Positions 5,130 to 44,040 are shown, counted from the stretch's first letter. The stretch: DNA of 64,000 bases from Escherichia coli (GCF_050320075.1 NZ_CP190018.1); one strand, 5' to 3'. Numbers and translations are program-made. The notes: generated by a model not told the origin, from the letters alone.

Positions 5130-5467
5130 ATGGAGATGTATTTTAAAAGAATGAAAGATGAGTGGACCGGGCTTGTCGAACAAGCAGATCCGCTCATTCG
5201 TGCTAAAGCCGCGGAAATTGCCGTTGCGCATGCCCATTATCTGAGTATTGAGTTTTACCGAATTGTCCGTATCGACCCGCATGCCGAAGAATTCTTGAGT
5301 AATGAACAAGTTGAGCGGCAGTTGAAAAGTGCGATGGAACGCTGGATTATTAACGTGCTTTCTGCCCAGGTGGACGATGTCGAAAGGCTAATACAAATCC
5401 AGCATACCGTTGCGGAAGTGCATGCCCGCATAGGAATTCCGGTAGAAATTGTCGAGATGGGGTTTCG
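5130..5467 (+). pseudogene. dosC: dosC 5' fragment (globin-sensor domain only), truncated by IS1
   Basis: Product starts MEMYFKRMKDEWTGLVEQADPLIRAKAAEIA (DosC globin domain) and runs into the IS1 left end at 5468; the GGDEF domain is absent. Confidence 0.8.
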
Positions 5468-5522
5468 GGTGATGCTGCCAACTTACTGATTTAGTGTATG
5501 ATGGTGTTTTTGAGGTGCTCCA

Positions 5523-5798
5523 GTGGCTTCTGTTTCTATCAGCTGTCCCTCCTGTTCAGCTACTGACGGGGTGGTGCGTAACGGCAAAAGCACCGCCGGA
5601 CATCAGCGCTATCTCTGCTCTCACTGCCGTAAAACATGGCAACTGCAGTTCACTTACACCGCTTCTCAACCCGGTACGCACCAGAAAATCATTGATATGG
5701 CCATGAATGGCGTTGGATGCCGGGCAACCGCCCGCATTATGGGCGTTGGCCTCAACACGATTTTCCGCCATTTAAAAAACTCAGGCCGCAGTCGGTAA
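5523..5798 (+). CDS. insA: IS1 InsA
   Basis: 91-aa product [43 protein letters not shown]. Confidence 0.95.
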
Positions 5799-6220
5799 CC
5801 TCGCGCATACAGCCGGGCAGTGACGTCATCGTCTGCGCGGAAATGGACGAACAGTGGGGATACGTCGGGGCTAAATCGCGCCAGCGCTGGCTGTTTTACG
5901 CGTATGACAGGCTCCGGAAGACGGTTGTTGCGCACGTATTCGGTGAACGCACTCTGGCCACACTGGAGCGTCTTCTAAGCCTGCTGTCGGCCTTTGAGGT
6001 CGTGGTATGGATGACGGATGGCTGGCCGCTGTATGAATCCCGCCTGAAGGGAAAGCTGCACGTAATCAGCAAGCGTTACACTCAGCGAATTGAGCGGCAT
6101 AACCTGAATCTGAGACAACATCTGGCAAGGCTGGGACGGAAGTCACTGTCGTTCTCAAAATCGGTGGAGCTGCATGACAAGGTCATCGGGCATTATCTGA
6201 ACATAAAACACTATCAGTAA
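5717..6220 (+). CDS. insB: IS1 InsB (transposase made as InsAB' by -1 frameshift)
   Basis: 167-aa ORF overlapping insA in the -1 frame; typical IS1 organisation. Confidence 0.9.
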
Positions 6221-6235
6221 GTTGGAGTCATTACC

Positions 6236-6430
6236 GAAAATTCAACAGCAGAACCCGCTCTGGTTAATGCCATTGAGCAAGGCCTTCGGGCAGAGCACGG
6301 TGTTGTCACTGAAGATGACATTCTCATGGAGCTGACCAAATGGGTGGAAGCTTCTGATAACGACATCCTCAGTGATATCTACCAGCAAACGATCAATTAT
6401 GTGGTCAGTGGCCAGCACCCTACGCTTTAA
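6236..6430 (+). pseudogene. bdm: bdm (biofilm-dependent modulation protein), 5'-truncated by IS1
   Basis: Reading frame ENSTAEPALVNAIEQGLRAEHGVVTEDDILMELTKWVEASDNDILSDIYQQTINYVVSGQHPTL begins exactly at the IS1 right end; the first ~7 codons and the promoter are missing. Confidence 0.8.
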
Positions 6431-6825: not shown

Positions 6826-8523
6826 ATGGAACCAAAAACAAAAAAACAGCGTTCGCTTTATATTCCTTACGCTGGCCCTGTACTGCTGGAATTTCCGTTG
6901 TTGAATAAAGGCAGTGCCTTCAGCATGGAAGAACGCCGTAACTTCAACCTGCTGGGGTTACTGCCGGAAGTGGTCGAAACCATCGAAGAGCAAGCGGAAC
7001 GAGCATGGATCCAGTATCAGGGATTCAAAACCGAAATCGACAAACACATCTACCTGCGTAACATCCAGGACACTAACGAAACCCTCTTCTACCGTCTGGT
7101 AAACAATCATCTTGATGAGATGATGCCTGTTATTTATACCCCAACCGTTGGCGCAGCCTGTGAGCGTTTTTCTGAGATCTACCGCCGTTCACGCGGCGTG
7201 TTTATCTCTTACCAGAACCGCCACAATATGGACGATATTCTGCAAAACGTGCCGAACCATAATATTAAAGTGATTGTGGTGACTGACGGCGAACGTATTC
7301 TGGGGCTTGGTGACCAGGGCATCGGCGGGATGGGCATTCCGATCGGTAAACTGTCGCTCTATACCGCTTGTGGCGGCATCAGCCCAGCGTATACCCTTCC
7401 GGTGGTGCTGGATGTCGGGACGAATAACCAACAGCTGCTTAACGATCCGCTGTATATGGGCTGGCGTAATCCGCGTATCACTGACGACGAATACTATGAA
7501 TTCGTTGATGAATTTATCCAGGCTGTGAAACAACGCTGGCCGGACGTACTGTTGCAGTTTGAAGACTTCGCACAAAAAAATGCGATGCCGTTACTTAACC
7601 GCTATCGCAATGAAATTTGTTCTTTTAACGATGACATTCAGGGCACCGCGGCGGTAACGGTCGGCACACTGATCGCAGCCAGCCGCGCGGCAGGTGGTCA
7701 GTTAAGCGAGAAAAAAATCGTCTTCCTTGGCGCAGGTTCAGCGGGATGCGGCATTGCCGAAATGATCATTGCCCAGACTCAGCGCGAAGGATTAAGCGAG
7801 GAAACGGCGCGGCAGAAAGTCTTTATGGTCGATCGCTTTGGCCTGCTGACCGACAAGATGCCGAACCTGCTGCCTTTCCAGACCAAACTGGTGCAGAAAC
7901 GCGAAAACCTCAGTGACTGGGATACCGACAGCGATGTGCTGTCACTGCTGGATGTGGTGCGTAATGTAAAACCAGATATTCTGATTGGCGTCTCAGGACA
8001 GACCGGGCTGTTTACGGAAGAGATCATCCGTGAGATGCATAAACACTGTCCGCGTCCGATCGTGATGCCGTTGTCTAACCCGACTTCACGCGTGGAAGCC
8101 ACACCGCAGGACATTATCGCCTGGACTGAAGGTAACGCGCTGGTCGCCACTGGCAGTCCGTTTAACCCAGTGGTATGGAAAGATAAAATCTACCCTATCG
8201 CCCAGTGTAACAACGCCTTTATTTTCCCGGGCATCGGGCTGGGCGTTATTGCTTCCGGCGCGTCACGTATCACCGATGAGATGCTGATGTCGGCAAGTGA
8301 AACGCTTGCTCAGTATTCGCCACTGGTGCTGAACGGCGAAGGTCTGGTACTGCCGGAACTGAAAGATATTCAGAAAGTCTCCCGCGCAATTGCCTTTGCG
8401 GTTGGCAAAATGGCGCAGCAGCAAGGCGTGGCGGTGAAAACCTCCGCCGAAGCTCTGCAACAGGCCATTGATGATAATTTCTGGCAAGCCGAATACCGCG
8501 ACTACCGCCGTACCTCCATCTAA
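6826..8523 (+). CDS. maeA: NAD-dependent malic enzyme
   Basis: 565-aa product from [22 protein letters not shown]; malic enzyme family; the ORF-track start at 6790 is a GTG extension. Confidence 0.95.
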
Positions 8524-10068: not shown

Positions 10069-10778
10069 TAAATATCCTCCGGCATAGCCGGAGGTTTTTC
10101 AAATGCGCCTGTAAGGCTCTGTTACCAGCCGCGCCCTAACAGGCGCATACGATCTGACATTTGCATTCAACTTCGTTACTTACGGCCCGTAAACGGGCTG
10201 CCCGGATATGGAATCGATAACTGCTCCCCCATTTTATCCTCTTCAAGCTGGTGCTTTATGTAGTCCTGTATCTTCGCCGTGTTCTTACCCACCGTATCGA
10301 CATAGTACCCTCGGCACCAGAACTCCCTGTTTCTGTATTTGAATTTCAAATCCCCAAACTGCTCGTAAAGCATCAGACTGCTTTTCCCTTTCAGATATCC
10401 CATAAAGCCGGATACGCTCATTTTGGGTGGGATTTCCACAAGCATATGGATATGATCTGCGCAGCACTCTGCTTCCAGAATCCGTACGCTTTTCCACTCA
10501 CACAGCTTTCTCAAAATACTGCCTATCGCCCTACGCTTCTCTCCGTAAAACGCCAGTCTTCGGTATTTCGGCGCAAAAACTATGTGATATTTACAGTTCC
10601 AGCGGGTGTGCGCTAAGCTCTTTTCGTCCCCCATTGGGACCCCCTTTTGATTTCTTGTTTGACACTTGCAGTTGCCAGACCGCAAGGTGTTTTAACAAAT
10701 CAAAAGGGGTTTTAATAACTGGCTCAAAGCTGAAAGCTTTCCGGAACCCCCAGCCTAGCTGGGGGTTTTCTGTGCACA
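10067..10778 (-). mobile_element. IS200-like element (IS200/IS605 family), copy 1, about 712 bp
   Basis: Shares about 712 bp including terminal hairpins (cctccggcatagccggagg; ccccagctaggctggggg) with an inverted copy at 49967..50678; boundaries inferred from where the two copies diverge from their flanks. Confidence 0.7.
10176..10634 (-). CDS. tnpA: IS200-type Y1 (HUH) transposase TnpA
   Basis: 152-aa product MGDEKSLAHTRWNCKYHIVFAPKYRR with a HIHML HUH motif; the ORF-track start at 10685 is an extension. Confidence 0.9.
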   Translation of the reverse strand: MGDEKSLAHTRWNCKYHIVFAPKYRRLAFYGEKRRAIGSILRKLCEWKSVRILEAECCADHIHMLVEIPPKMSVSGFMGYLKGKSSLMLYEQFGDLKFKYRNREFWCRGYYVDTVGKNTAKIQDYIKHQLEEDKMGEQLSIPYPGSPFTGRK

Positions 10779-10830: not shown

Positions 10831-11484
10831 TTATATCCCTTCTTCACTCTCTTTTTTCGCTTCTGCCTTCTCGATTTCACGATACCAGCGCGGATGGTGT
10901 TTCTTCGCCCAGCGACGGCTCACCTTTCCTTCGATCATCCCTTTAATCGATCCTTTCACCCAGAATGCCATATACATATGGATCAGGATGGCGTGGATCA
11001 GGATGATACCCGCAGCCGCGTGGATCAGCAGGCTATAACGGACAACCTGTATCGGGAAGTACTGCGCAAAGTACGGACGCCAGATAATCACCCCGGTCAC
11101 CAGCAGCACGAAAATCATGCTCATGATCGACCAGAACATCATCTTTTGCCCGGCGTTGTACTTACCGACATCCGCCACTTTGTGCTCATTGCCTTTTAAT
11201 ACTTCGACAATGTTCAACAGCCACGGAATATCTTTCTTATCCGGGATGTTGTGATGCACAAAACGCACAAACATAAACATCAGCGCGACGAAAATCGCAA
11301 TGCCGAAGAACGGGTGCAAAATGCGTCCCATCTGCGGCGTACCGAAGGTTTGCGTCAGCCATTGCAGCGTCGGGAAGAAGAACGAAATCCCGGACAGCGC
11401 CACCAGGAAGAAGCAAATCACCACGGTCCAGTGACAGGCGCGATCAATAAATTTGGTGCGCACAATCATTTTCGACTTACTCAT
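10831..11484 (-). CDS. fdnI: Formate dehydrogenase-N gamma subunit (cytochrome b556)
   Basis: 217-aa membrane protein from [19 protein letters not shown]; start overlaps fdnH. Confidence 0.9.
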
Positions 11485-28493: not shown

Positions 28494-29188
28494 TGCAGAT
28501 CCTCAAAGTGATCGGCCTGCTGATGGAGTATCCAGACGAGCTGTTGTGGGAATGTAAGGAGGACGCGCTGGCGTTGATCCGCCGCGACGCACCGATGCTT
28601 ACGGATTTTACCCGCAACCTGCTTAACGCGCCGCTGCTGGATAAACAGGCCGAATGGTGCGAAGTGTTTGACCGTGGACGTACCACATCGCTGCTGCTGT
28701 TCGAACATGTTCATGCCGAGTCCCGCGATCGCGGCCAGGCAATGGTGGACCTGCTGGCGGAGTATGAAAAGGTCGGCCTGCAGTTGGATTGTCGAGAACT
28801 GCCCGATTATCTACCGCTGTATCTGGAGTACTTAAGCGTACTGCCGGACGATCAGGCGAAAGAAGGCTTGCTCAACGTTGCGCCGATCCTCGCCCTGCTT
28901 GGCGGACGCTTAAAACAACGCGAGGCATCGTGGTACGCGTTATTTGACACCCTGTTGCAACTGGCAGGAAGTACACTTTCAAGTGACAGTGTCACAAAAC
29001 AGGTGAACAGTGAGGAGCGCGATGACACCCGCCAGGCACTGGATGCGGTGTGGGAAGAGGAACAGGTGAAGTTTATTGAAGATAACGCCACGGCGTGTGA
29101 CAGCTCGCCGCTTAATCAATATCAGCGACGCTTTAGCCAGGATGTCGCGCCGCAGTATGTCGACATCAGTGCGGGAGGTGGGAAATGA
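28493..29188 (+). CDS. narW: Nitrate reductase 2 assembly chaperone (NarJ-like)
   Basis: 231-aa product in the expected position between the beta and gamma subunits. Confidence 0.9.
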
Positions 29189-29865
29189 TTCAGTATCTGA
29201 ACGTCTTTTTTTACGATATCTACCCGTACATTTGTGCGACGGTGTTTTTCCTCGGCAGCTGGCTGCGCTACGACTACGGGCAGTATACCTGGCGCGCCTC
29301 CTCGAGTCAGATGCTCGATAAACGCGGGATGGTGATATGGTCGAATCTGTTCCATATCGGCATTTTGGGGATTTTCTTCGGGCACCTGTTCGGCATGTTA
29401 ACGCCGCACTGGATGTACGCGTGGTTTCTGCCGGTGGCGGTAAAACAGCAGATGGCGATGGTGCTCGGTGGTATTTGCGGTGTATTGACGCTGATTGGCG
29501 GCGCAGGACTGCTGTGGCGCAGGCTGACAAATCAGCGCGTGCGTGCCACTTCCACTACGCCGGATATTATCATCATGATCATTTTGCTGATTCAGTGTCT
29601 GCTGGGGCTAAGTACCATACCGTTTTCAGCACAGTATCCTGATGGTAGCGAAATGATGAAGCTGGTGGGTTGGGCGCAAAGCATTGTCACTTTCCGTGGT
29701 GGATCGTCAGAAATGCTTAACGGCGTAGCGTTCGTTTTCCGCCTGCATCTGGTGTTGGGAATGACCATCTTCCTGCTCTTCCCGTTCACCCGACTGGTGC
29801 ATGTGTGGAGCGCGCCGTTTGAGTACTTTACTCGTCGGTATCAGATTGTGCGCTCGCGGCGATAA
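29185..29865 (+). CDS. narV: Respiratory nitrate reductase 2 gamma subunit (cytochrome b)
   Basis: 226-aa polytopic membrane protein, overlapping narW. Confidence 0.9.
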
Positions 29866-32513: not shown

Positions 32514-32741
32514 TTACATGCTGTAACCGGGTTTCTTTATCAAAGCCTCCATTTGGGGCGCGATTTCGGCATCCCAGATAGCTTGCCAAGATTCTGGTTG
32601 AATCTGCTGTAGAGAAATGCTTATCGAGCTATCTTTACTGTTCAGATGGCGAATAATAACGTCGGTAATATCTGCAGCAAGTGCTGCTTTTTGTTGTTCG
32701 TCCAGTTCACGCGGAAAACATTTAATGTCTATGTGCGGCAT
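32514..32741 (-). CDS. pptA: Tautomerase PptA (4-oxalocrotonate tautomerase family)
   Basis: Product begins [29 protein letters not shown] (catalytic Pro after the initiator Met); the ORF-track start at 32780 is an extension. Confidence 0.85.
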
Positions 32742-33046: not shown

Positions 33047-35023
33047 ATGCAGCTTAATCATATCGTTAAAAGTCTGCTAATAACGGGATTATTCACCACC
33101 AGTTCTTTACCTCTCCTCGCGGCGGAAGCTCCTAAAGACGCCACCGCAGCCACGCAACAAGCAAACAATTTACTCTACAACCAGTTGCCGTTTGCCGATA
33201 ACACTGACTTTACTGATGCCCATAAAGGTTTTATTGCCCCTATCCCTCAAGACGTGATTAAGGGCGAACAAGGGAATGTTATCTGGGATCCACAACATTA
33301 CGCTTTTATCAAAGAAGGCGATAAAGCCCCTGATACGGTGAATCCGAGTTTATGGCGTCAGGCGCAACTGATAAATATCAGCGGGTTATTCGAAGTAACT
33401 GAAGGTGTCTATCAGATTCGCAATCTCGATCTATCAAATATGACCATCATTGAAGGCAAAGAGGGTATTACCGTCGTTGATCCCCTTGTTTCAGCAGAAA
33501 CAGCCAAAGTGGGTATGGATCTCTATTACAAAAATCGCGGCAAAAAACCGGTAGTGGCGGTTATCTATACACACAGTCATGTCGATCACTACGGTGGTGT
33601 TCGTGGCGTAATTGATGAAGCTGACGTTAAATCAGGCAAAGTTAAAATCTATGCGCCAGCCGGATTTTTGGAGGAAGCCGTTTCCGAAAACATCATGGCT
33701 GGCAATGTTATGAGCCGACGAGCCAGTTATATGTATGGCAACTTATTGAAACCTGATGTTAAAGGCCAGGTGGGGGCTGGACTGGGAACGACTACTTCAG
33801 CAGGAACAGTCACGTTGATTGCTCCTACTAACTACATCACCAAAACCGGACAAATAGAAACTATTGACGGGTTGACTTATGATTTCCTGATGGCGCCAGG
33901 TTCTGAAGCGCCTTCTGAAATGCTGTGGTTTATTGAAGAAAAGAAACTGATCGAAACCGCTGAAGATGTCACGCACACCCTTCATAACACCTATTCGCTG
34001 CGTGGGGCTAAAATTCGCCAACCGCTGCCGTGGTCAAAATATATTAATGAAGCTCTCAATTTGTGGGGTGATAAAGCCGAGATTATTCTCGCTCAACATC
34101 ACTGGCCAACCTGGGGCAACGATAACGTGGTCAAACTGCTTAAAAGCCAGCGTGATTTGTATCGTTACATCAATGATCAAACTCTGCGCATGGCTAATCA
34201 AGGGATGACCCGTGATGAAATTGCCGCAAACTTTAAACTGCCCTCTTCACTGGCTAACACCTGGGCGAATCGCGGCTATTACGGTTCGGTAAGTCATGAC
34301 GTGAAAGCAACTTACGTGCTTTATCTCGGCTGGTTTGATGGTAACCCCGCGACGCTTGATGAACTGCCGCCAGAAGAAGGCGCAAAAAAATTCGTCGAGT
34401 ATATGGGCGGTGCTGATGCCATTTTACAGAAAGCCACACAGGATTATGACCAGGGTAATTTCCGCTGGGTTGCCCAAGTTGTTAGTAAGGTGGTGTTTGC
34501 CGATCCAAACAACCAGGCAGCGAGAGATCTGGAAGCTGATGCGCTTGAGCAGTTAGGCTATCAGGCTGAATCTGGGCCGTGGCGTAATTTCTATCTCACT
34601 GGTGCACAGGAATTGCGTAATGGCGTACAAAAATTACCAACACCAAATACTGCCAGCCCAGACACCGTGCGTGCGATGACGCCGGAGATGTTCTTTGATT
34701 ATCTTGCCGTCCATATTAATGGTGAGAAAGCGGCAGATGCCAAAACCGTGTTGAATTTCGATTTTGGTGAAGATGGCGGCACCTATAAAGTGGAGCTTGA
34801 AAATGGTGTTCTCAATCATACCGCTGGTGTAGAGGCTTCGGATGCTGATGCCACTATCACTCTGTCTCGTGATGTATTGAACAAAATTGTACTGAAAGAA
34901 GAGACGCTGAAAGAAGCCACGGCCAAAGGAGATGTCAAAATTACTGGCAATGAGGAAAAACTCAACGAGCTGTTAGGTTATATGGATAATTTTGAATTTT
35001 GGTTCAATATAGTGACACCATAA
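33047..35023 (+). CDS. Periplasmic alkyl/aryl sulfatase-like metallo-beta-lactamase-fold protein (YjcS/SdsA1-like)
   Basis: 658-aa product with signal peptide, HSHVDHYGG metal-binding motif and a long C-terminal dimerisation/SCP2-like region; AT-rich relative to its neighbours; not at this locus in K-12 as far as I recall. Confidence 0.8.
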   Translation: MQLNHIVKSLLITGLFTTSSLPLLAAEAPKDATAATQQANNLLYNQLPFADNTDFTDAHKGFIAPIPQDVIKGEQGNVIWDPQHYAFIKEGDKAPDTVNPSLWRQAQLINISGLFEVTEGVYQIRNLDLSNMTIIEGKEGITVVDPLVSAETAKVGMDLYYKNRGKKPVVAVIYTHSHVDHYGGVRGVIDEADVKSGKVKIYAPAGFLEEAVSENIMAGNVMSRRASYMYGNLLKPDVKGQVGAGLGTTTSAGTVTLIAPTNYITKTGQIETIDGLTYDFLMAPGSEAPSEMLWFIEEKKLIETAEDVTHTLHNTYSLRGAKIRQPLPWSKYINEALNLWGDKAEIILAQHHWPTWGNDNVVKLLKSQRDLYRYINDQTLRMANQGMTRDEIAANFKLPSSLANTWANRGYYGSVSHDVKATYVLYLGWFDGNPATLDELPPEEGAKKFVEYMGGADAILQKATQDYDQGNFRWVAQVVSKVVFADPNNQAARDLEADALEQLGYQAESGPWRNFYLTGAQELRNGVQKLPTPNTASPDTVRAMTPEMFFDYLAVHINGEKAADAKTVLNFDFGEDGGTYKVELENGVLNHTAGVEASDADATITLSRDVLNKIVLKEETLKEATAKGDVKITGNEEKLNELLGYMDNFEFWFNIVTP

Positions 35024-35037
35024 ATTTACTGCATACC

Positions 35038-35060
35038 GGGCAGGTATCCTGCCCTTTTTT
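35038..35060 (+). terminator. Rho-independent terminator after the sulfatase gene
   Basis: gggcagg / tat / cctgccc followed by tttttt. Confidence 0.7.
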
Positions 35061-35069
35061 GGTTAAAAA

Positions 35070-36167
35070 ATGGCTGAACGAAGAAAAACTCATCACTCAT
35101 GGAAAACCCGCCGCGATATGGTTATTCGCGGCATGACGATTAGTTTGCCATGGTTTGCTTTTATCAATGTCAGTTTTGCATTGATAATTTTGCTGCGCCG
35201 TGTTCTGTTTAATGACCTTACTCCACCCTGGTTAAATGAAAAAAGCCTTATACATTCTATTGATATATCTGCAACGGGTATTCTGCTGATTTGCAGTGGT
35301 TTACTACTCATCCCTCGGCAAAAAACATTACCTATCCAGGTGCTATTAGTTGCCCTGAGCCTGCTATGGTCATGGTGTAGTTATCACTTTATTGCGTACT
35401 GGACGCTGCAGTTTGCTTATCCACTATGTGTATTATTAATGCTTAGTGGCGTTGTCGCACTTTATTTCCATACCCCATCATTGCTCGCATTTGTCATTCC
35501 CTTATGGTTCACCACTCCAATAGCGAGTCTTATGCTTAATCAACAGATCAATATTCATTTTGCTGTTGTATGGTGTATTTTTTCACTGGCGCTATATGGT
35601 GGGCGACTCATTTTGTTACGTTGGTTTGAAGAAGCATGGGTACAAAACAGTTATAACAACCAGTTAATTAATCGCCTTGATGCATTAGCACATCGTGATC
35701 CTTTAACTGGGATAGCAAACCGACGTGCAATGAACAGTATCTTACACGACGCGATGGATAACGGCGGGTCATTTGCTCTTATTATGCTGGATGTCGATTT
35801 TTTTAAACGTTACAACGACACTTACGGGCATCCTGCTGGGGATCGTTGTCTAATACAAGTTGCCGACGCTCTACAGCGTTCAACTCGCCAGTCGGAGGAT
35901 GTTGTTGTCCGTTATGGTGGCGAAGAGTTTGCCATCATACTTTTTAATGCAACATTGCCGGAAGCAGAGACGGTAGCAGCCAGAGTGAAGCAAGAACTTA
36001 AACTGGCAGCTATCCCACATCAGGCATCTGCTGTTAATGCATTTGTTACGGTTAGTCAGGGGATTACCTGTTCTGCTCCCGCAAAAACGGCTGAACAAAT
36101 TATTTCAGATGCCGACGCTGCGTTATACCGGGCGAAAGAAAGTGGGCGAAATCGATGGGCTTTATAA
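35070..36167 (+). CDS. Membrane-anchored diguanylate cyclase (GGDEF domain, intact GGEEF active site)
   Basis: About 5 predicted N-terminal TM helices, then DPLTGIANRR ... RYGGEEF ... YRAKESGRNRWA; start codon uncertain (alternatives at MVIRG and MTISL). Confidence 0.8.
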   Translation: MAERRKTHHSWKTRRDMVIRGMTISLPWFAFINVSFALIILLRRVLFNDLTPPWLNEKSLIHSIDISATGILLICSGLLLIPRQKTLPIQVLLVALSLLWSWCSYHFIAYWTLQFAYPLCVLLMLSGVVALYFHTPSLLAFVIPLWFTTPIASLMLNQQINIHFAVVWCIFSLALYGGRLILLRWFEEAWVQNSYNNQLINRLDALAHRDPLTGIANRRAMNSILHDAMDNGGSFALIMLDVDFFKRYNDTYGHPAGDRCLIQVADALQRSTRQSEDVVVRYGGEEFAIILFNATLPEAETVAARVKQELKLAAIPHQASAVNAFVTVSQGITCSAPAKTAEQIISDADAALYRAKESGRNRWAL

Positions 36168-36169
36168 GC

Positions 36170-37063
36170 ATTAGGGGACTGGACAGATTACGTCTCTCCT
36201 CGCTTAACAAGGGCTGACGGAGGGTAATAATTGTCTATAGCTATCTTCTTAGCGATGTCTTTCTGGTATCACATTGGATCGGTGCAATTATTTTTCCTTT
36301 AATACCCATTATGTTAAGAAATTCAGAAACAGCTGTAATCTCATTGTTTTTTTCATTCGTCTTGATCTTCCAAGGAATCTGACTGTGCATTATTGAGAAC
36401 ACACTAATAACGTGAATCGCTCCCTTGCGACGACTCTTGTCATAAGAGTACCGGAGCGTTTTTCCATCAATTGCAATGACGTCTTTATCATCTGAAGAAT
36501 GGCAGTCAAGCATCCAGTTAATAAAGCACTCATAAAATTTTTCAGGACTGATACAGGATACAACTCTGGCAATGGTATCGTGAACAGGAATACCATTATC
36601 AAAATCACCATATTGCTTCAAAAAATCGAGATGTGTTTCCCCAAAATCCTCTATATCTTCCCAGCCTTCTGCACCCGAAATAACGGCACAAATAGTCAAC
36701 AGTAGAATATCCGATAATTTATGTTCCACTTTCCAGGCTTGTCTGTAATCGGGGATAATAGAAATATGTCCCATCAATTTTTTAAGTTCCATTTTGTTCT
36801 CCTTAATTATGTAAGGAGTATTTGATCATGTATACGCAATAAAAAACAGCTTCAGGTAATGAGGAATATCTCAATTGTTAAACATAAAATGCGAATTGTC
36901 TAGTACAAAAAAGCAGCGTTACGTGATCTTTCCGTGGATCGTCAAATTGTTCGAGAGAAAATACCAACATGATGGATTTTACTGTAAAAGTAATGTCGTA
37001 GTTTAAAAACTCATCATCCGGTAAAGCCTTGTGGGGCGTGGGCTTTCATACTTTTACCCTGAT
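36170..37063 (-). mobile_element. Truncated H-repeat (ISAs1-family) element remnant
   Basis: 5' end region (aacatgatggattttactgtaaaagtaatgtcg...cttgtggggcgtgggctttcat) is shared with the second H-rpt copy at about 43700..43800; the coding region breaks off after about 180 codons, next to the cyclase gene stop. Confidence 0.6.
36241..36792 (-). pseudogene. H-repeat-associated (ISAs1-family) transposase, 3'-truncated
   Basis: 183-aa N-terminal fragment ([21 protein letters not shown]...) aligning with the N-terminus of the copy at 42493..43629. Confidence 0.75.
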
Positions 37064-37377
37064 GTCTGCTATACGCCGGACACCCTTTACGTAGCATTCG
37101 GAATTCACCCGTAAATTTATCACGGCGGTATCACGAAACCTCCGGTTCTGATGCCGCTTAGGACTAACGACACGTCAACACAGGTTCGGGTTTATTCATT
37201 TCACTGTATCTCATATAATCTGAGCACTCCCCCTGCGCTCGCTACTATGACTCTTTACCACAGCAACCGGGGTTGTTTGGGATCGGCTTTCAACAGCAGA
37301 TCCCGGTGGCTATTGCAAGTAAGTCTACTTTCCACATCAGTGTTACTGACACAGAAAATAATGAGTTATGATCCTTG

Positions 37378-37863
37378 TCATATTTTTAATATAGCCCCAT
37401 GAGCTATAGGATCAAAACCTTCTAACCATGAGGTGTTTTTATCGAATAATGCATCTGTTATATTTATATCGCCATATCTATCACATAATAAATTAGCGCC
37501 ACATAAGTCAGCACCAGAAAAATTTGAATCTTTAACGTCTGCATTGCAAAAGGTTGAATTAGTTAATATAGCACCCTCAAAGTTTGCACCTATTGACCTT
37601 GAATTACTAAAGTCACTTCCAGTGAAATCTGAGTTATTAAGAATAGCGTTCATCAGAGCCGCATTGCGAAAGACAGCATTTCTAGTTGATGTATGTTGAA
37701 TCATTACATTTCTTAAATGGGAATTTTCAAATTTCGCCCCATCAAGACAATAACCATTGAGGATGGCACGATGTAGATCCATCCCGCTAAAATCATATCC
37801 AGCAAGAGTGGTACTATCTATATCAAGAAATTTATTGGTTATTAAAAACGCGATTCTTATCAT
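37378..37863 (-). CDS. ydcD: Pentapeptide-repeat protein, probable immunity protein for the Rhs C-terminal toxin
   Basis: 161-aa product made of A(D/N)Lxx-type repeats ([27 protein letters not shown]); its ATG overlaps the rhs TGA (ATGA); AT-rich. Confidence 0.75.
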
Positions 37864-40800
37864 CTATTCCCCCAATCATCTAACTCCGGAAAAATTTGGC
37901 TAAACGGATATAGTGGTGCCGATAATGGACGCGTACCTGGCCGCTCAGGAGGAAGTTTATCACATAACAGACCCGCAACCATCCTGTGATTACCATTAAC
38001 AATCACATTCCCATCCATATCAACCGGTGGTGCTCCACTACCATCTTCCAGCATTTGTACGTAGTGAGCTACTACGGGTACTGAGACTTTTTGTTGTACT
38101 GTCAACAAGGGACTGTTGGCCACAACCATCCTGATGTTTTCAGGTGTCGTAGGTAAACATTTAGTCTTCTCTTGACTAAAGGTATCATCCCACAATTTTG
38201 TTAAACCCATCACTGCCTGTTGTCTGTATTTATCCATGGGGTCAGCAATCAACCAAGATGGACCTGACTGCTCTATGGAATCTTCTCCGGAGAGACCCAA
38301 CGGATCTATCTTAGTAGTTGGATTCAATGGATACTGATACAGGTTCCATGCACCTCTTAGCCCAATGGGATCCTGGGTGATATACCGCCCCTGCAACGGG
38401 TCATAGTACCGGTTGCGGTTATAGTACAGCCCCGACTCCTCATCATACTGCTGCCCCGGCAGACGGTACGGCTGTTGCAGTTGCTGCGCGCTGGTTTCGC
38501 CCAGCAGGTTTCCCCACTCGTCATACTCCCCCTGCCACGCCGTTTCCCCTTCCGGGCTGATGAGCGCCTGCGGCAGCCCCCGGTGGTCGCAGTGGTAAAG
38601 ATGAAGTGTCCTCTCCGGGATGTATTCCGCCTCCATCTGGTTTTTCATCTGTTCCGCCGTCAGCCCGCACTGCTGAAGCCATGCCTCACTCTCCGCACTC
38701 ACCGCACCCGCGCGCAGTTCCCGCTCCAGCCTCCCCAGCATCACCGACAGCTCCGCCGGTAGCGTCACCCCCGTGTCCTCCTGCAACACCTCCGCCAGAC
38801 TCCGGTGCCGCGCCTTCGCCTGTTCACCATTCTCTGTTTCGATTCTGATGAGCGGCGTGAAGCTCCCCGGCTGGTATACCGTCTGGATACGCGTGGTGCC
38901 GGTCTGTACCGTCGTCAGCCTGTCACCGTCCCACCCGTACCAGGTCTCCTCCGGTTTACGCGACAGCGACATCCACCCCGTCAGGTCACGCTCCCGCCGC
39001 CACACCCGTTTCCCCGTCCGGCGGCCCAGCGGGTCATAGAGGTAGCGGCTCTCCACCTGTGGCTCGCCGTGCTGTATCCGCGTGTAGAACACCAGGCGGT
39101 GCTGGCTGTCGTAATGGTAGTGGTGCGTCCGCTCGTCGTGCATCCGTATCACCCCTTCCGGGATACGGTCCGTCTTCTCCGCCAGCCTGCCGTATTCATC
39201 GTAGCGGTAGACATAGTGCGCATCTTCCGTGATGCGGTTATCCGGCCACGCCGTGAAGGTGCTGTCCGGGTGCAGTTCCGGGTCCGGCAGCCGGTTTCCT
39301 GCCGGGTCCGTCGCATACGGGATATCGATATCCAGGTTCGCCGCCGTGGTGTGAACGCCCGTCAGTCTTCCCGTGTCGCTGTAACGGTACTTCCGGCTCT
39401 CCTGCGGGCCGCTGATGCGCACCAGTTGCCCGTTATCGTTCCACGTATACTCACGGTCAAGCTGCGGAAGGTTCAGGTGCCTGCTCCGGAGCTGCCCTGT
39501 GAGGGTGTACGCCGTGGCCTGTTCGTACCCCGCTGTACTGCCCGCCCCGCCGAAGCTGCGGGCCGTCTCACGGTGCAGCCGGTCCCGCGTGTACTCGACC
39601 AGCGGCGTTCCGCCCAGCTTCATCCCCGCAAGATAACCGCTGCCATACGTCAGCCACTCCACCGGCGGCAGACCGTCCGGCTCCTGACGGGTCGCCAGCC
39701 CCTGTTCGCTGTAGACGTGCCTCGTCTCATGCTCCCACAGCATCTCCCCCGTCTCCTGGTTCTCCACCGTCTGCCGTTCGCCCGTCAGGCGGCCTTTATC
39801 GTCATAGCCGTAGTGGACCGCCACACGGTGGCCTTCGCTCAGGTGGCTGATTTCTGTCAGCCAGCCGTGGTCGTCATACTGCCACTGCTCCGCCGGGTCG
39901 CCGTTCACCGTCCGGTGCGTGATGCGCCCGGCGTCATCGTAGTACCACTGCGTGACCTGCCCCTCATCCTCGCTGCGGATGAGCTGCCCTGTGGCGCTGT
40001 ACCGGTAACGCTGTGTCCTGCCGTCAAAGCCGCGCTGCTCCGTCAGCCTGTCCACCGGGTCATACCGGAACGTGGACTGGCTGCCGTTCTCGTTGGTCAG
40101 CACGGTGATGCGCCCGGCGGCGTCATACTCCATGCTGCGCGTCAGTCCGCCCTGCGTGGTGCTGACGGCCTTTCCCCACGCATCATACTGTGTCTCACTC
40201 CGGCTGCCGTTCGGGGCAATGATAGCGGTGAGGTCGCCTGCGGCGCTGTACTCATAACGGGTTTCACGTCCCTGCGCATCCTTCTGACTGACCAGTTGAC
40301 CACGCGGGTTATAACTGCTGTAAGTGCTGATGCCTTCCTCCCGGTGAACCGCCGTCCTCTGACCGTACCGGTCGTATTCATACCGCGTCGTGTACCCTGA
40401 ACAGTCCGTAAATGCCTGAAGCTGACCGTACCGGTTTCGCGTTATTCTCCGCCTCACCCCGGTTCCGTCTTCCACCGCACAGGGCAGGCCACTGCGGGAA
40501 GAATCATAAAACCAGCGCGTAATGTTACCGTTGCGCGAGACCTCTTCCGCCAGCCTGCCCTGACGGTCATATTTCCGGCTGCGGCGCAGCCCGTCCGGGT
40601 ACGTCACTGACGTCAGTTGCAACTGGTTGTTGTAACCATACCGTACCGTCCTGCCGTCCGGCAGTATCACTGAAGTCAGCTTTCCCGACGCCATATGCAG
40701 CCGGTACTCCGTCCGCCGTCCCGCCGCATCCGTCTGCGCCTTCAGCCTCCCCGCCTCATCATACTCGCTGCGGGTGATGCTCCCGTCCCCATACTCCTTC

Positions 40801-42071
40801 TTCACCACCCGCTTCAGGCCGCCCTCGCCCTCCGTGTACAGCACCTCCCGCCGGTTCAGGCTGTCCGTGATGGTCACGCGGTCCTGCCCGTACTCAAAGC
40901 GGTAGTCCAGCCCCTCCGGGTTGACCTGCTCCGTCACCCGACCGGTATCATCATACCGGTAGCGGCTCTCCGGCCTCCCCGCATAATGGTGCGCCACCAT
41001 CCGCCCGGCGTGCTCCGCATCATAAGTAAACCCGCGCACCTGCGTCCCGCTGCGGTCATACACCGCCCGCAGTTCTCCGCTGGCCGTGTACGTGTAGCGC
41101 GCCAGCGGCGCAGTCGGCAGTTCATCCGGGTATGCCGGGTCGTGTGTCAGCCATACCGCCTCCAGCCGGATACCGTTATCGGCACCGTACTCTGTACCGG
41201 TGGGCAGCGTGTCGGGGAAAAACTGAGAAGAGGAAACAGAACGGGGACTGGCCGGAGAAGATAAAGAAGACTCGCGCTGTTTACGGAAGGCTTTCGCCCG
41301 CTGCGCCTGTGTGGTCAGCGCCAGATGAAAACGGCGGCCCGCGCCGTCCGTCACCCCCGTCACCGCGCCCGCCGCTTCCCCCTCTGCCGCCCGGTGGAAG
41401 GCCAGCGTCCGCCCGAAGCCGTCCACCACGCCCGTCAGCACCCGGTATGCGGGCGGCTCCGGCGGCAGCACCTCGTCCGCCTCCGGCACCCGCTCCGGCC
41501 AGCCGAGTATCCACCACGGCCCCTGAAGGCTGTTTGTCGCCAGGTACACATGCGGGCTTAAGCGGAGACTCTCCGGCAGCACCTGCCAGAGCGCGCTTAG
41601 CGGCTGCGAACTGTGCTGCTCCGCCACCCCGCCCCTTGCCAGCCAGAACGACTCGCTGCGGCTGTAGCTTATCTCGCCGGGAAACAGCGGCTCAAAGTGA
41701 ATGCTCCTGCCGCCACTGTCGTTGAGTATCAGTTCCCGCTCATGAACCTGTAAGCGGATATCGAAGGGCGCTTTCCAGCCGGGACCAAACACCCCCACCG
41801 GCGCGGGTGTCCTGGTCCGGTAGCTGCTGTAGGCGCGGGAAAGAATAAACGGCAACGGGCCGGGCAGCGCAAGATCCGTCTCGCCCGGCAGCACCTTCGC
41901 ACCCAGTAGCGGGTTCACCGGGTTACCCTTCTGCTCCTCCACCGGGCTGTTGGGACACACCGAGCAGGCCACTCCCGTCGGCGCACCTATCAGCACCCCC
42001 GCTGAACCCTGCACAATATCCAGTCCCTTGCGGGTCATATCGCCCTGTCGCGCCGCCGGTTTTCCGCTCAT
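37860..42071 (-). CDS. rhsE: Full-length Rhs family polymorphic toxin (PAAR-like N-terminus, YD-repeat shell, variable C-terminal tip)
   Basis: 1403-aa product; N-terminus [13 protein letters not shown] (PAAR-type); many YD repeats; DPIGL core-boundary motif about 175 residues from the C-terminus; GC-rich core with an AT-rich tip. The gene symbol follows K-12 synteny, where this gene is a truncated pseudogene as I recall. Confidence 0.85.
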
Positions 42072-42090
42072 GGTTTATTCCTTAAATTAT

Positions 42091-42282
42091 TTATGGTTTT
42101 ATTCTGAGTGCAATCCATACTGATTCATAACCAGTGAATAAGATTTCCCCGAATAATCTATATAAATTAGCGAAGTCCTCTTCACTAATTAACCGTAAAA
42201 TCCCGTACCAATGAAATATAAAAATAACCACCCACACAAATTTATTGCAAATATTATTTATTATTGTATATACATCATTCAC
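42091..42282 (-). CDS. Hypothetical small hydrophobic protein upstream of rhs (GTG start; may be spurious)
   Basis: 63-codon ORF in a very AT-rich region ending 19 bp before the rhs ATG; no recognisable motif. Confidence 0.3.
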   Translation of the reverse strand: MNDVYTIINNICNKFVWVVIFIFHWYGILRLISEEDFANLYRLFGEILFTGYESVWIALRIKP

Positions 42283-42479
42283 TGAACGTTCTCAAACTGC
42301 ATACCTTAGAACCATCAATTAAAGCCACAACAAAAAAAATCGATTACTTTATGTCGCATGACAAATATGAATTACATATTAATCAACCTTAAAAACAATC
42401 ATCTCTTATAATTAACAGCATACCATGAGAAACACAAAATCAATTTACCATGCATACCAGGAGCATAATTAACCTCTCA

Positions 42480-43802
42480 CCGCAGGGCGAAATCATGAAG
42501 GCCCGCAGCCAGCAAGGATTAGAGAAAGGTATTCATTCTTACGTCCTGCCCGCTTTTGCTTGCGTTTAATACCCGCTTTAAAGCTATTCTCTGCGGTCAG
42601 TAAATTCATCGCGATATGTCGACAAACTGCCAGATTTTCTCCCGCTTCTCCACGAACAATCTGGCATTCATCTTCCCGCATCCCCATATCAAGTCGCCAG
42701 TGCAGTTGATTTTCTACCGACCAGTGTGCTCGTGTTGCTTCCAGGAGTTCTTTCGCCGTAAGCGTCACCGAACTTATGTAGTAGCGAAGAATACACTTCT
42801 CTGATTTCACCGCTGTTTCTCCTTCCTGTCTGCTCGCCAGCACTATTCCTATCGTGCTCAGCTCTGACCATTCATAAGCTAAATCACCCAGAGCGGTTAA
42901 ATCATGGCTCACAATGCAGCATCGTGTATCTTCCCGTCCATGCCCTTTTTCCTGCGTGCTGTAACTGTCATACCTCTCACCCAGCCACATTGTCGGCGAG
43001 TACCCGTTATCAAACGCCTCCGCTAATTTTCCCTGATTTCCTTTCAGCGCCAGCAGGTAACCGGCTTTCTTTTTCAGAATTTCACGGGCGATTATATGCT
43101 GGCAACCCATTGCATCCAGCGTGACCAGACACCCTTTTAATTCCAGCAACTGGAGCCGTTCCGGGATCGCCGTTATCTCATTCGATTTTGCCCCTGTTTT
43201 CACCTGCCCCAAAACCAGACGATTTTCTGCGCTAAAAGCACTGACCCTATGGATCACGGCATTACGTTTCGATTTATCGTAAGTACCCCGTAATGACTTA
43301 CCATCAATCGCCACAACAGAGCCTTCAGACAACGTGTGACAGTCCTTCATCTACTGGATAAAAAGGGGCTGTAATTGTTTTGCTGAAATCATTCCCATCA
43401 CTCGGGCAATCGTGTGATGGGAGGGGGTGCCATTTTCAAAATCACCATACAGGCGTAACCATTCCAGATGCTCCTCACCAAAATCAGCAATTTCTTCCCA
43501 TCCTTCAGCGCCACCGATAATGGCGGTGATCGTCAGAAAAAGGATATCCGCCAGGCTGTAACTGGTTTTCCAGGACTGGCGATAATCGTGAATAATTGAA
43601 ATTTGATCCAAAAGGCTTAGTCCGTTCATGGTGTGCTATCCATCAAAAAGAAAGGATAAGATCACACTGAAATAAGATGGTCAAATTGATCGAAAAAAAA
43701 GATCAACATGATGGGTTTTACGATAAAAGTAATGTCGCGATTTAAAAATTCATCATTCACCAAAGTCTTGTGGGGCGCGGGCTTTCATGCTTTTTCCCTG
43801 AT
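42480..43802 (-). mobile_element. H-repeat (ISAs1-family) element upstream of rhs
   Basis: About 1.3 kb unit holding an ISAs1-type transposase reading frame; 5' end sequence shared with the remnant at about 36900..37063; boundaries approximate. Confidence 0.6.
42493..43629 (-). pseudogene. H-repeat-associated (ISAs1-family) transposase interrupted by an in-frame amber codon
   Basis: ORF-track pieces 43351..43629 and 42493..43350 are contiguous in one frame, separated only by TAG (plus-strand cta at 43351..43353): ...LQPLFIQ*MKDCHTLSEG. Confidence 0.8.
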
Positions 43803-44040
43803 ACGCTACCGCTCTGCCCTGATAACATGATCTGCACGGCGCTATCATATCGACATATTTCTCTACATGCGAAAGGATGTTTTATTTTCGGATTATATTA
43901 AATTGATATTTCATATAAAAAACGAGATTACATAAATCATATAAATAATTGTACCAACTTTAATTACCATTCATAGCAAACAAATGGATGTCCAGTTAAC
44001 TACGCCAGTGATTTATTAACATTAATCTCCGGCATTATTG

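Follow-up and report, generated by a model that had tools for sequence, protein, structure and literature searches.

A sulfatase gene and a MASE5-GGDEF cyclase gene beside pptA as probable ancestral Escherichia genes missing from most E. coli

Structures of type III alkyl sulfatases from Pseudomonas include SdsA1 (P. aeruginosa, 2CFU) and PSdsA (Pseudomonas sp. S9, 4NUR), and E. coli K-12 encodes a member of the same family, YjcS (4PDX). Among the membrane-bound GGDEF cyclases that are absent from K-12, a described system in E. coli is DgcX of enteroaggregative E. coli and O104:H4, a horizontally acquired protein with an intact GGEEF motif. DgcX is a MASE4-GGDEF protein with its GGDEF domain at residues 269-441 and an intact I-site (PMC4287979), and its gene is prophage-associated, at ybhC/ybhB, ydaW/uspF or argW/dsdC (PMC10459773). 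The MASE5-GGDEF architecture has been listed for Enterobacter ludwigii EL-703 and for DGC3134 of Pantoea sp. YR343 (PMC7232144 Table 3; PMC8294551 Table 1).

We examined a window of 64,000 nucleotides, the whole stretch of E. coli DNA that was analysed (NZ_CP190018.1), in which a gene of each family lies next to pptA. Two plus-strand open reading frames, at 33047-35023 and 35070-36167, encode a predicted periplasmic type III (metallo-beta-lactamase-fold) alkyl sulfatase of 658 aa and a predicted MASE5-GGDEF diguanylate cyclase of 365 aa. Their left backbone neighbour is the tautomerase gene pptA (32514-32741, minus strand; NCBIfam PRK01271, 1.8e-46), as also annotated by RefSeq in strain CFSAN061763 (100% identical), from which the RefSeq annotation was taken. 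On the right, an Rhs/H-repeat island (36160-44040, delimited by annotation and by comparison with the island-free E. coli KFu014) lies immediately against the cyclase gene at its 3' end. The locus is an ordinary one that is already annotated, and both families are well known to specialists. We estimate a probability of about 80% that the two genes are independent, vertically inherited members of the Escherichia/Citrobacter backbone that survive here and were lost, with an insertion sequence at the scar, from most E. coli. The pair is accessory in its distribution and ancestral in its origin.

Analysis of the sulfatase with Pfam revealed a metallo-beta-lactamase-fold domain bearing HxHxDH (Lactamase_B, residues 128-226, 1.1e-16), a dimerisation domain (PF14863 Alkyl_sulf_dimr, residues 388-526, 3.3e-62) and an SCP2-like C-terminal domain (PF14864 Alkyl_sulf_C, residues 534-658, 3.1e-44). 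A motif search placed HSHVDH at residues 176-181. Residues 1-25 look like a Sec signal peptide by prediction, and the PSdsA chain in 4NUR begins at residue 26 of the aligned sulfatase. Full-length matches in the PDB were 7TL5 (the closest), PSdsA, YjcS, Pisa1 and SdsA1. By eye, the 7TL5 protein was ~84% identical over the same three domains and PSdsA ~72%; 7TL5, PSdsA and SdsA1 share with the window protein the HxHxDH motif, further acidic and histidine residues as putative ligands and a signal peptide. The putative zinc ligands are H176, H178, D180, H181, E287, E306 and H351. E287, E306 and H351 fall within blocks conserved in 7TL5, PSdsA, YjcS and Pisa1, with an Asp of Pisa1 in the E306 column, and their putative ligand role follows the SdsA1 numbering (H169/H171/D173/H174/E280/E299/H344), at a constant offset of +7. 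YjcS has the same family, architecture and periplasmic location; however, about half of its residues were identical by eye, it scored 697 bits compared with 1188 for 7TL5, and yjcS occupies a different chromosomal locus. Judged by sequence, the window sulfatase is a second family member, paralogous to YjcS, and neither a copy of yjcS nor a displaced yjcS. The exported, zinc-dependent enzyme would split alkyl sulfate esters in the periplasm into alcohol and sulfate.

In the cyclase, MASE5 (PF17178) was matched over the whole domain (residues 25-206, profile positions 2-192 of 192, 7.5e-44) and was followed by a GGDEF domain (Pfam, 1.9e-48; TIGR00254, 2.3e-46). Residues 281-287 form RYGGEEF, which was invariant in 10 aligned orthologues and homologues, as were D241, D243, K246, N249, D250 and D258 of a DxD...FKxxND...GD block and K356 and R360 of a C-terminal YRAKxxGRN block, which are metal- and GTP-binding residues by analogy with PleD and WspR. 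Hydropathy and an AlphaFold2 model (mean pLDDT 72.5), in which the GGDEF fold was also present, each gave six membrane helices. The canonical RxxD I-site, which stands five residues before GGDEF in the feedback-inhibited subclass, was replaced by R273-Q-S-E-D277 (RxxxD); both charged residues were invariant, with a spacing one residue longer than RxxD in all 10 sequences, and classical product inhibition is therefore unlikely. Translation from the ATG at 35070 yields 365 aa and from the RefSeq ATG at 35118 yields 349 aa; the N-terminal extension keeps its reading frame and a similar sequence in Citrobacter, Enterobacter and E. marmotae. All cyclase catalytic residues are present. Both proteins look enzymatically competent, and at the inner membrane the six-helix MASE5 sensor would control the condensation of two GTP to c-di-GMP by the GGDEF domain in the cytoplasm. 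The original prediction had described these same two reading frames as an SdsA1/YjcS-type periplasmic sulfatase and a GGDEF cyclase with an intact RYGGEEF motif and about five transmembrane helices; the three Pfam domains, HSHVDH and the signal peptide agree with the former, and for the latter the motif held and the helix count did not.

Gene context in outgroups was obtained via cluster membership and exact-protein look-ups. The order narZ…yddE-nhoA-yddH-pptA-sulfatase-cyclase was common to E. marmotae, E. ruysiae and E. whittamii, with the pair occupying one site in all three, flanked by pptA and yncG/ansP, and without any island in E. ruysiae. In other species this neighbourhood held a single gene of the two: C. 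koseri had yddH-cyclase-pptA-yncG and no sulfatase, C. amalonaticus had sulfatase-pptA and no cyclase, and E. albertii had pptA-sulfatase with the cyclase gone from window-equivalent 35071. Both genes have diverged roughly in step with the flanking backbone genes. The sulfatase gene was 95.5% (E. whittamii), 86.8% (E. ruysiae) and 86.8% (E. marmotae) identical in nucleotides to that of the window, compared with 89.0%, 89.4% and 87.4% for nhoA. The cyclase protein had diverged more than its flanks: amino acid identity to its E. marmotae and E. ruysiae counterparts was 78-81%, compared with 92-96% for nhoA and yddE.

Among 5,426 complete E. coli genomes, 438 (8%) contained the intact pair. The window-type junction between the cyclase and a deleted H-repeat was present in 343 of these, and in 87, including KFu014, the cyclase was followed by yncG with no island. 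K-12 had neither gene, and its complete H-repeat, ydcC, abuts the site 89 bp upstream of pptA. In the window, homology to KFu014 ended at 36159 and restarted at 44041 in yncG; the intervening island comprised a deleted H-repeat, a group II intron scrap, a pentapeptide-repeat protein, an Rhs core protein and a second ISAs1 pseudogene, and PADLOC returned no matches for the neighbouring Rhs, pentapeptide-repeat and transposase proteins. BLAST-level H-repeat homology started at 36242, 74 bp past the cyclase stop. The 5' two-fifths of the element lie at 36242-36911 (minus strand; BLAST and NCBIfam), with an N-terminal transposase part (ORF 36241-36792) that covers positions 1-142 of 314 of the NCBIfam transpos_ISAs1 profile and carries the RefSeq note 'missing C-terminus'. 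The remnant was 91-92% identical to the ydcC-type elements of K-12, ECONIH1 and ST131.

When the 74-bp spacer was compared without gaps to the K-12 H-repeat terminus, 24/34 positions matched over the best segment and the diagonal score was 14 compared with 6.9 ± 1.1 for shuffled sequence, a score reached in 0/1000 shuffles; a gapped local alignment against that end of the element fell short of significance (17 versus 13.3 ± 2.1). These comparisons provide moderate evidence that the spacer is a diverged terminus of the ISAs1-family H-repeat, placed at 36160-36241 from this similarity and the end of backbone homology, and the terminus so placed provides the cyclase gene with its final two codons and its stop codon. 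Given that likeness, the element would lack ~530 bp of its interior and would not be truncated at its end, and this lineage would have no intact transposase from it. The E. marmotae alignment ran contiguously through the cyclase/deleted-H-repeat junction, which indicates that the junction is old; E. whittamii shares it in part. The complete H-repeat of K-12, only 91% identical to the remnant, is thus not its simple direct precursor.

Analysis of genomes that lack the pair revealed the H-repeat terminus (CAGGGCAAGATTACG..., or AGGGAAAGATTACG... in ECONIH1) abutting different backbone positions. The join was at window-equivalent 32830 in K-12, at 33116 in ECONIH1, where 70 bp of the sulfatase gene are left, and at 32570 in ST131, where pptA is lost too; in TUM1887 the break was at ~32791, beside an end-truncated element. 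An ISAs1/H-repeat element was present at the scar in 6/6 module-negative genomes inspected. The K-12-like junction was counted in ~2,371 genomes (an approximate figure that includes joined BLAST pieces), the 70-bp sulfatase remnant in 84 and the ST131-type yddH/H-repeat junction in ~520 (a rough figure, by subtraction); subtraction also leaves ~1,270 pptA-bearing genomes outside all of these classes and several hundred more without pptA, a handful of which were inspected. An intact element terminus at differing positions in three genomes points to recurrent IS-associated deletion, and the 70-bp stub indicates deletion rather than the absence of an insertion. Association of the H-repeat with loss of the pair is the better reading than association with its arrival. 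Most E. coli have an ISAs1/H-repeat element where the pair and varying neighbouring DNA are missing, and the element may have caused these deletions; in this lineage the pair is kept beside an H-repeat that lacks an intact transposase, and the dead transposase may have contributed to that retention.

The proposal that the two genes were imported as an accessory module, entering or being relocated with the Rhs/H-repeat island, has some support: the pair physically adjoins the H-repeat, is patchily distributed and has a GC content of 46% (sulfatase) and 43% (cyclase) compared with 53.5% on the nar operon side. We nevertheless give it very little credence. The low GC is no evidence of recent import, because pptA, undisputed backbone, is equally low at 44%, and the island-free carriers (87 E. 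coli genomes and E. ruysiae), the shared position in three other Escherichia species, the single-gene versions in the same neighbourhood of Citrobacter and E. albertii, the flank-like divergence and the sulfatase stub all argue against it. Arrival or rearrangement with the island was the view of the original prediction, which had suggested comparing the pptA–rhs interval across genomes; that comparison contradicted it by placing the pair at one site across Escherichia species with no island needed. Its description of the pair as accessory and absent from K-12 stands, with the ydcC H-repeat at the K-12 site and the pair confined to a minority of E. coli. It had also put the end of the pair about 75 bp from a break point in the H-repeat transposase gene; the distance was right, whereas what is missing is the ~530 bp of interior. 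A second alternative accepts an ancestral presence of the pair in the genus and holds that this copy was reintroduced or overwritten by recombination from an E. whittamii-like cryptic clade, the deleted-H-repeat junction included. Identity to E. whittamii was 95.6% for pptA, 95.5% for the sulfatase and 94.3% for the cyclase compared with 88.4-90.7% for yddE, nhoA and yddH, a step that makes recombination between lineages possible; the sequence after the cyclase is common to both through 36276, and the window narV is unusually divergent from that of other E. coli (85-87%), so the region is visibly mosaic. However, the segments compared are short, the other E. coli carriers (98% identical for the KFu014 type and 99.6% for the MSHS 133 type) differ by amounts typical within a species, and the presence of the junction in the more distant E. 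marmotae fits simple old ancestry. We regard such introgression as unlikely, and vertical inheritance followed by loss as the preferred reading.

Whether the neighbours act together is a separate matter. The genes are on the same strand, 46 bp apart, and have remained neighbours in four Escherichia species; the T-run of a hairpin precedes the start codon of the cyclase by 10 nt, and a scan found no promoter-like site just upstream of the cyclase gene. They could accordingly be imagined as a functional unit in which terminator read-through couples the cyclase to the sulfatase and MASE5 senses the sulfatase product or substrate. The hairpin, at 35038-35060 on the plus strand, resembles an intrinsic terminator (GGGCAGG-TAT-CCTGCCC and a T-run, with a 7-bp GC stem and a 3-nt loop) and matches the separate sulfatase terminator originally proposed; its stem was invariant and its loop variable across six Escherichia lineages. 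An Rfam search in and between the two genes revealed no riboswitch and no other RNA element. A terminator conserved this strongly, together with the occurrence of each gene alone in related species (the cyclase in C. koseri, the sulfatase in C. amalonaticus and E. albertii), indicates that coupling is probably not obligatory, and with a ~50%-identical Enterobacter MASE5-GGDEF protein encoded elsewhere beside no sulfatase, we consider the functional unit highly improbable. A bolder extension of the preferred reading, which we hold to be improbable, is that the ancestor of E. coli, compared with K-12, carried an extra membrane cyclase as well as a second alkyl sulfatase in the periplasm, and that their survival may hinge on the state of the H-repeat: with a transposase-dead, deleted copy or no island the pair would be kept, and with an intact copy repeated terminus-anchored deletions would remove it. 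Were it also true that the sulfatase terminator gates cyclase expression and that the ligand sensed by MASE5 is an alcohol or an alkyl sulfate, biofilm control would be linked to host compounds that are sulfated or detergent-like.

The same window has also lost a cyclase gene. ORF translation, BLAST and comparison with CFSAN061763 revealed that dosC is cut after ~112 codons (remnant 5130-5465) by IS1 (5466-6240), in agreement with the original prediction. The sequence past IS1 resumes inside bdm, and dosP, ddpXABCDF and osmC are consequently absent. The dosC-IS1 junction was found as a contiguous match in 0/5,426 complete E. coli genomes and appears to be strain-specific. With a predicted cyclase kept and DosC and DosP wholly lost, the cyclase balance would differ from the textbook network, and pair-bearing strains would have a predicted c-di-GMP input that is left out of K-12-based models of biofilm formation and motility. 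Carriers include MS14384, which is 100% identical at this locus and belongs to ST963, and for which RNA-seq in RPMI and serum has been published (PMC10024524). The locus clearly illustrates an insertion element standing where backbone genes are missing, with several independent end-points, and is a caution that absence from K-12, low GC and an IS neighbour do not equal import. We take ST963 to belong to the clinically important ST38 complex, which would place that complex among the carriers.

A second non-K-12 cyclase was reportedly named DgcY (Hengge et al. 2016 / Povolotsky & Hengge 2016), and the Pfam MASE5 entry is said to cite the E. coli GGDEF/EAL nomenclature paper. As K-12 presumably has no MASE5 protein, the window cyclase, WP_000236740.1, would be an obvious DgcY candidate, as a lead only; the literature searched contained neither the name DgcY for E. 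coli nor an account of the pptA-side cyclase gene. Identity with DgcX was rejected: the window cyclase has MASE5 and not MASE4, is shorter (349-365 aa), lies at the pptA locus with no prophage link and, unlike DgcX, has the RxxxD form of the I-site. The MASE5-GGDEF proteins of Enterobacter and Pantoea have its architecture, at ~50% identity, and the gene for the Enterobacter cloacae homologue occupies another locus, flanked by an amine oxidase gene and an aldehyde dehydrogenase gene (presumably tynA and feaB) and without a sulfatase. The Pantoea DGC3134 entry lists GGEEF without an RxxD tag (PMC8294551), in line with the RxxxD of the window cyclase.

Both open reading frames named by the original prediction, a sulfatase gene (33047-35023, plus strand) and a cyclase gene on the same strand from 35070 to 36167, were present in the window, which is E. 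coli chromosome and was 99.99% identical to strain CFSAN061763 over 21047-48167. The coordinates of the pair were 100% identical in many RefSeq genomes, where the products are labelled "alkyl/aryl-sulfatase" and "GGDEF domain-containing protein". We take ST963 to be an ST38-complex lineage of phylogroup D. MS14384, which is 100% identical to the window here, is an ST963 strain (PMC10024524). Analysis of 5,426 complete E. coli genomes revealed that the pair is, in statistical terms, accessory: it was intact (80% or more of the 3.1 kb) in 438 genomes, and in 90 the sulfatase gene was represented by just its first 62-70 bp. The junction of the cyclase gene with the H-repeat, an ISAs1-family element, was of the window type in 343 genomes, and in 87 the cyclase gene lay tail-to-tail with yncG, with no Rhs/H-repeat island. 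A 70-bp sulfatase stub next to an H-repeat was identified in 84 genomes and a K-12-like junction in approximately 2,371, a count that takes in joined BLAST pieces; these junction classes leave out approximately 1,270 pptA-positive genomes (by subtraction) and several hundred more that lack pptA. K-12 has neither gene, in line with the original prediction, and its complete H-repeat ydcC starts 89 bp upstream of pptA.

The pair had been proposed to have arrived or moved with the Rhs/H-repeat island. Relatives of the cyclase showed graded identity, from 93% in E. whittamii, 82% in an unclassified Escherichia, 79% in E. ruysiae and 77% in E. marmotae to 65% in Citrobacter koseri and approximately 50% in Enterobacter, Lelliottia, Hafnia and others. 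Look-ups of exact proteins in E. marmotae, E. ruysiae and E. whittamii recovered the order narZYWV-yddE-nhoA-yddH-pptA-sulfatase-cyclase, and no island follows the cyclase in E. ruysiae. In C. koseri the order was yddH-cyclase-pptA-yncG-ansP without the sulfatase; the approximately 50% identical Enterobacter homologue sits at another locus, beside amine oxidase and aldehyde dehydrogenase genes. Nucleotide identity of the sulfatase gene to the three other Escherichia species (95.5%, 86.8% and 86.8%) fell within the range of nhoA and yddH, with the cyclase diverging faster, and the GC content of the pair (sulfatase 46%, cyclase 43%) was matched by an equally low value for pptA (44%). Taken together, these comparisons make both genes part of the ancestral Escherichia backbone, and put the cyclase at the pptA site before the Escherichia-Citrobacter split. 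The pptA-cyclase segment was approximately 95% identical to E. whittamii compared with 88-91% for its flanks, so inter-lineage recombination over this segment is possible. Nearby, narV/narI (29185-29865) was 85-87% identical at the nucleotide level to two other E. coli carriers of the pair, KFu014 and MSHS 133, compared with 93-97.5% for yddE, nhoA and yddH, which suggests a recombinant, divergent narV allele.

Each gene also occurs alone: C. amalonaticus has sulfatase-pptA without the cyclase, and in E. albertii, which has pptA-sulfatase, homology stops exactly at the expected cyclase start. The terminator that had been assigned to the sulfatase was seen as a hairpin at 35038-35060, after the stop codon, with a 7-bp GC-rich stem and a T-run; its stem was invariant and its loop variable across E. 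coli, E. whittamii, E. ruysiae, E. marmotae and E. albertii. The separate occurrences and the conserved terminator argue for the two genes being neighbours and against an obligate module. The cyclase start codon lies 10 nt past the T-run, and no promoter-like site scored just upstream of the gene.

Relative to island-free E. coli, the Rhs/H-repeat island spans 36160-44040. Backbone homology ends 8 bp before the cyclase stop codon, and the island thus supplies the last two codons; the reading frame ends WAL-stop in the window, E. marmotae and E. whittamii, and WEK-stop or WAK-stop in island-free genomes. In the island-free KFu014 (11072-12739 of its locus) the cyclase stop codon abuts that of yncG, and in E. 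ruysiae (7001-8409 of its locus) yncG is wholly missing. The pair was said to end about 75 bp from the break of a truncated H-repeat. Instead, the 74 bp between the cyclase stop codon and BLAST-level H-repeat homology resembled the H-repeat terminus in the same register (24/34 in the best segment, a score reached by 0/1000 shuffles), and the element has therefore lost approximately 530 bp of its interior. This deleted junction aligned contiguously in E. marmotae and partially in E. whittamii; it is an old fossil and does not mark a recent arrival.

An ISAs1 element stood at the scar in 6/6 module-negative genomes inspected, and in genomes without the pair the same intact H-repeat terminus (CAGGGCAAGATTACGAAAGCCCGC...; AGGGAAAG... 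in ECONIH1) was joined to three different backbone positions: 33116 in ECONIH1, where the sulfatase gene is kept for 70 bp; 32830 in K-12; and 32570 in an ST131 strain of serotype O25:H4, which also lacks pptA and yncG. In TUM1887 the break (approximately 32791) adjoins an end-truncated element. The K-12 H-repeat was only 91% identical to the window remnant. IS-anchored adjacent deletion would yield these scars; insertion followed by recombination between copies is an alternative route, and the pattern is as expected from either. The dead transposase may have protected the pair in the window lineage. Given the synteny in other Escherichia, the island-free carriers and the ISAs1 elements at the scars, the island is better read as tied to loss than to arrival, and the history first proposed was wrong in direction. 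Within the island, the interval from the deleted H-repeat to a pentapeptide-repeat gene holds a group II intron D1-D4 fragment (37202-37310, minus strand; Rfam RF01999 at 48 bits, gathering score 36); no reverse-transcriptase ORF was found near it, so it looks like a relic. A 1403-aa Rhs core protein (in 37378-42071, minus strand), whose core is 62% GC and whose C-terminal tip is low in GC, precedes the 161-aa pentapeptide-repeat protein, presumably its cognate immunity protein; PADLOC gave no match for either.

Disruption of dosC by IS1 went further than originally described. The IS1 element (5466-6240) breaks dosC after approximately 112 codons (remnant plus IS1, 5130-6240) and the sequence resumes at codon 8 of bdm; compared with CFSAN061763, the rest of dosC, dosP, ddpXABCDF, osmC and the start of bdm are therefore missing. 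This junction was found in 0 of the 5,426 complete genomes. Compared with CFSAN061763, yddG, which encodes the exporter of aromatic amino acids, is broken by a second, 768-bp IS1 copy (16157-16924), with a 9-bp offset consistent with target duplication. Two STnc490 Rfam hits of 146 bits each were detected (10644-10767, minus; 49978-50101, plus); 720 bp around the latter was 96% identical to a CFSAN061763 stretch with an annotated IS200/IS605 tnpA, so the window contains two IS200-type copies. In the E. coli carrier MSB1_4I (NZ_LR898874.1) an IS1A insertion splits the sulfatase gene, and erosion of the pair thus continues in lineages that retained it.

The cyclase carries MASE5 (7.5e-44) and GGDEF (1.9e-48) domains. 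It is a membrane protein as predicted, but the count of about five helices was slightly low: hydropathy and AlphaFold2 (mean pLDDT 72.5) both gave six, the last continuing as a stalk towards the GGDEF fold. RefSeq starts the protein at 35118 (plus strand, 349 aa); the 16-18 codons 5' of this site are in frame and similar in basic/Trp content in Citrobacter, Enterobacter and E. marmotae, which makes the originally proposed 35070 at least as likely a start. The RYGGEEF motif was indeed intact and, like the DVDFFKRYND...GD and YRAKxxGRN blocks, invariant in ten homologues. At the expected RxxD feedback position the protein has R273-Q-S-E-D277, both charged residues being invariant; the spacing is one residue longer and the canonical I-site is therefore absent. 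The cyclase is likely a dimeric GGDEF enzyme converting GTP to c-di-GMP, with MASE5 reading a membrane or periplasmic cue, and probably lacks classical product inhibition. Extra c-di-GMP in E. coli would favour production of cellulose, PGA or curli and slow flagellar rotation.

The 658-aa sulfatase shows the three-domain architecture of the type III alkyl sulfatase family (Lactamase_B, then Alkyl_sulf_dimr, then Alkyl_sulf_C), with the HSHVDH motif at residues 176-181 and an N-terminus that reads as a Sec signal peptide; the solved PSdsA chain starts at its residue 26. By analogy with SdsA1 and PSdsA, it is likely exported to the periplasm and would cleave alkyl sulfate esters at a binuclear zinc centre. 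It aligned end to end with solved structures, the closest being 7TL5 (approximately 84% identity by eye), followed by the SDS hydrolase PSdsA (4NUR; approximately 72% by eye), with full-length matches to Pisa1 and SdsA1. About half of its residues were the same in E. coli YjcS (4PDX); with 7TL5 and PSdsA closer, these alignments identify a second paralogue and rule out a displaced yjcS. For the cyclase, comparison with DgcX, the prophage-linked MASE4-GGDEF cyclase of E. coli, ruled out that identity; the protein is probably what the Hengge nomenclature names "DgcY". Both proteins are ordinary members of well-described families.
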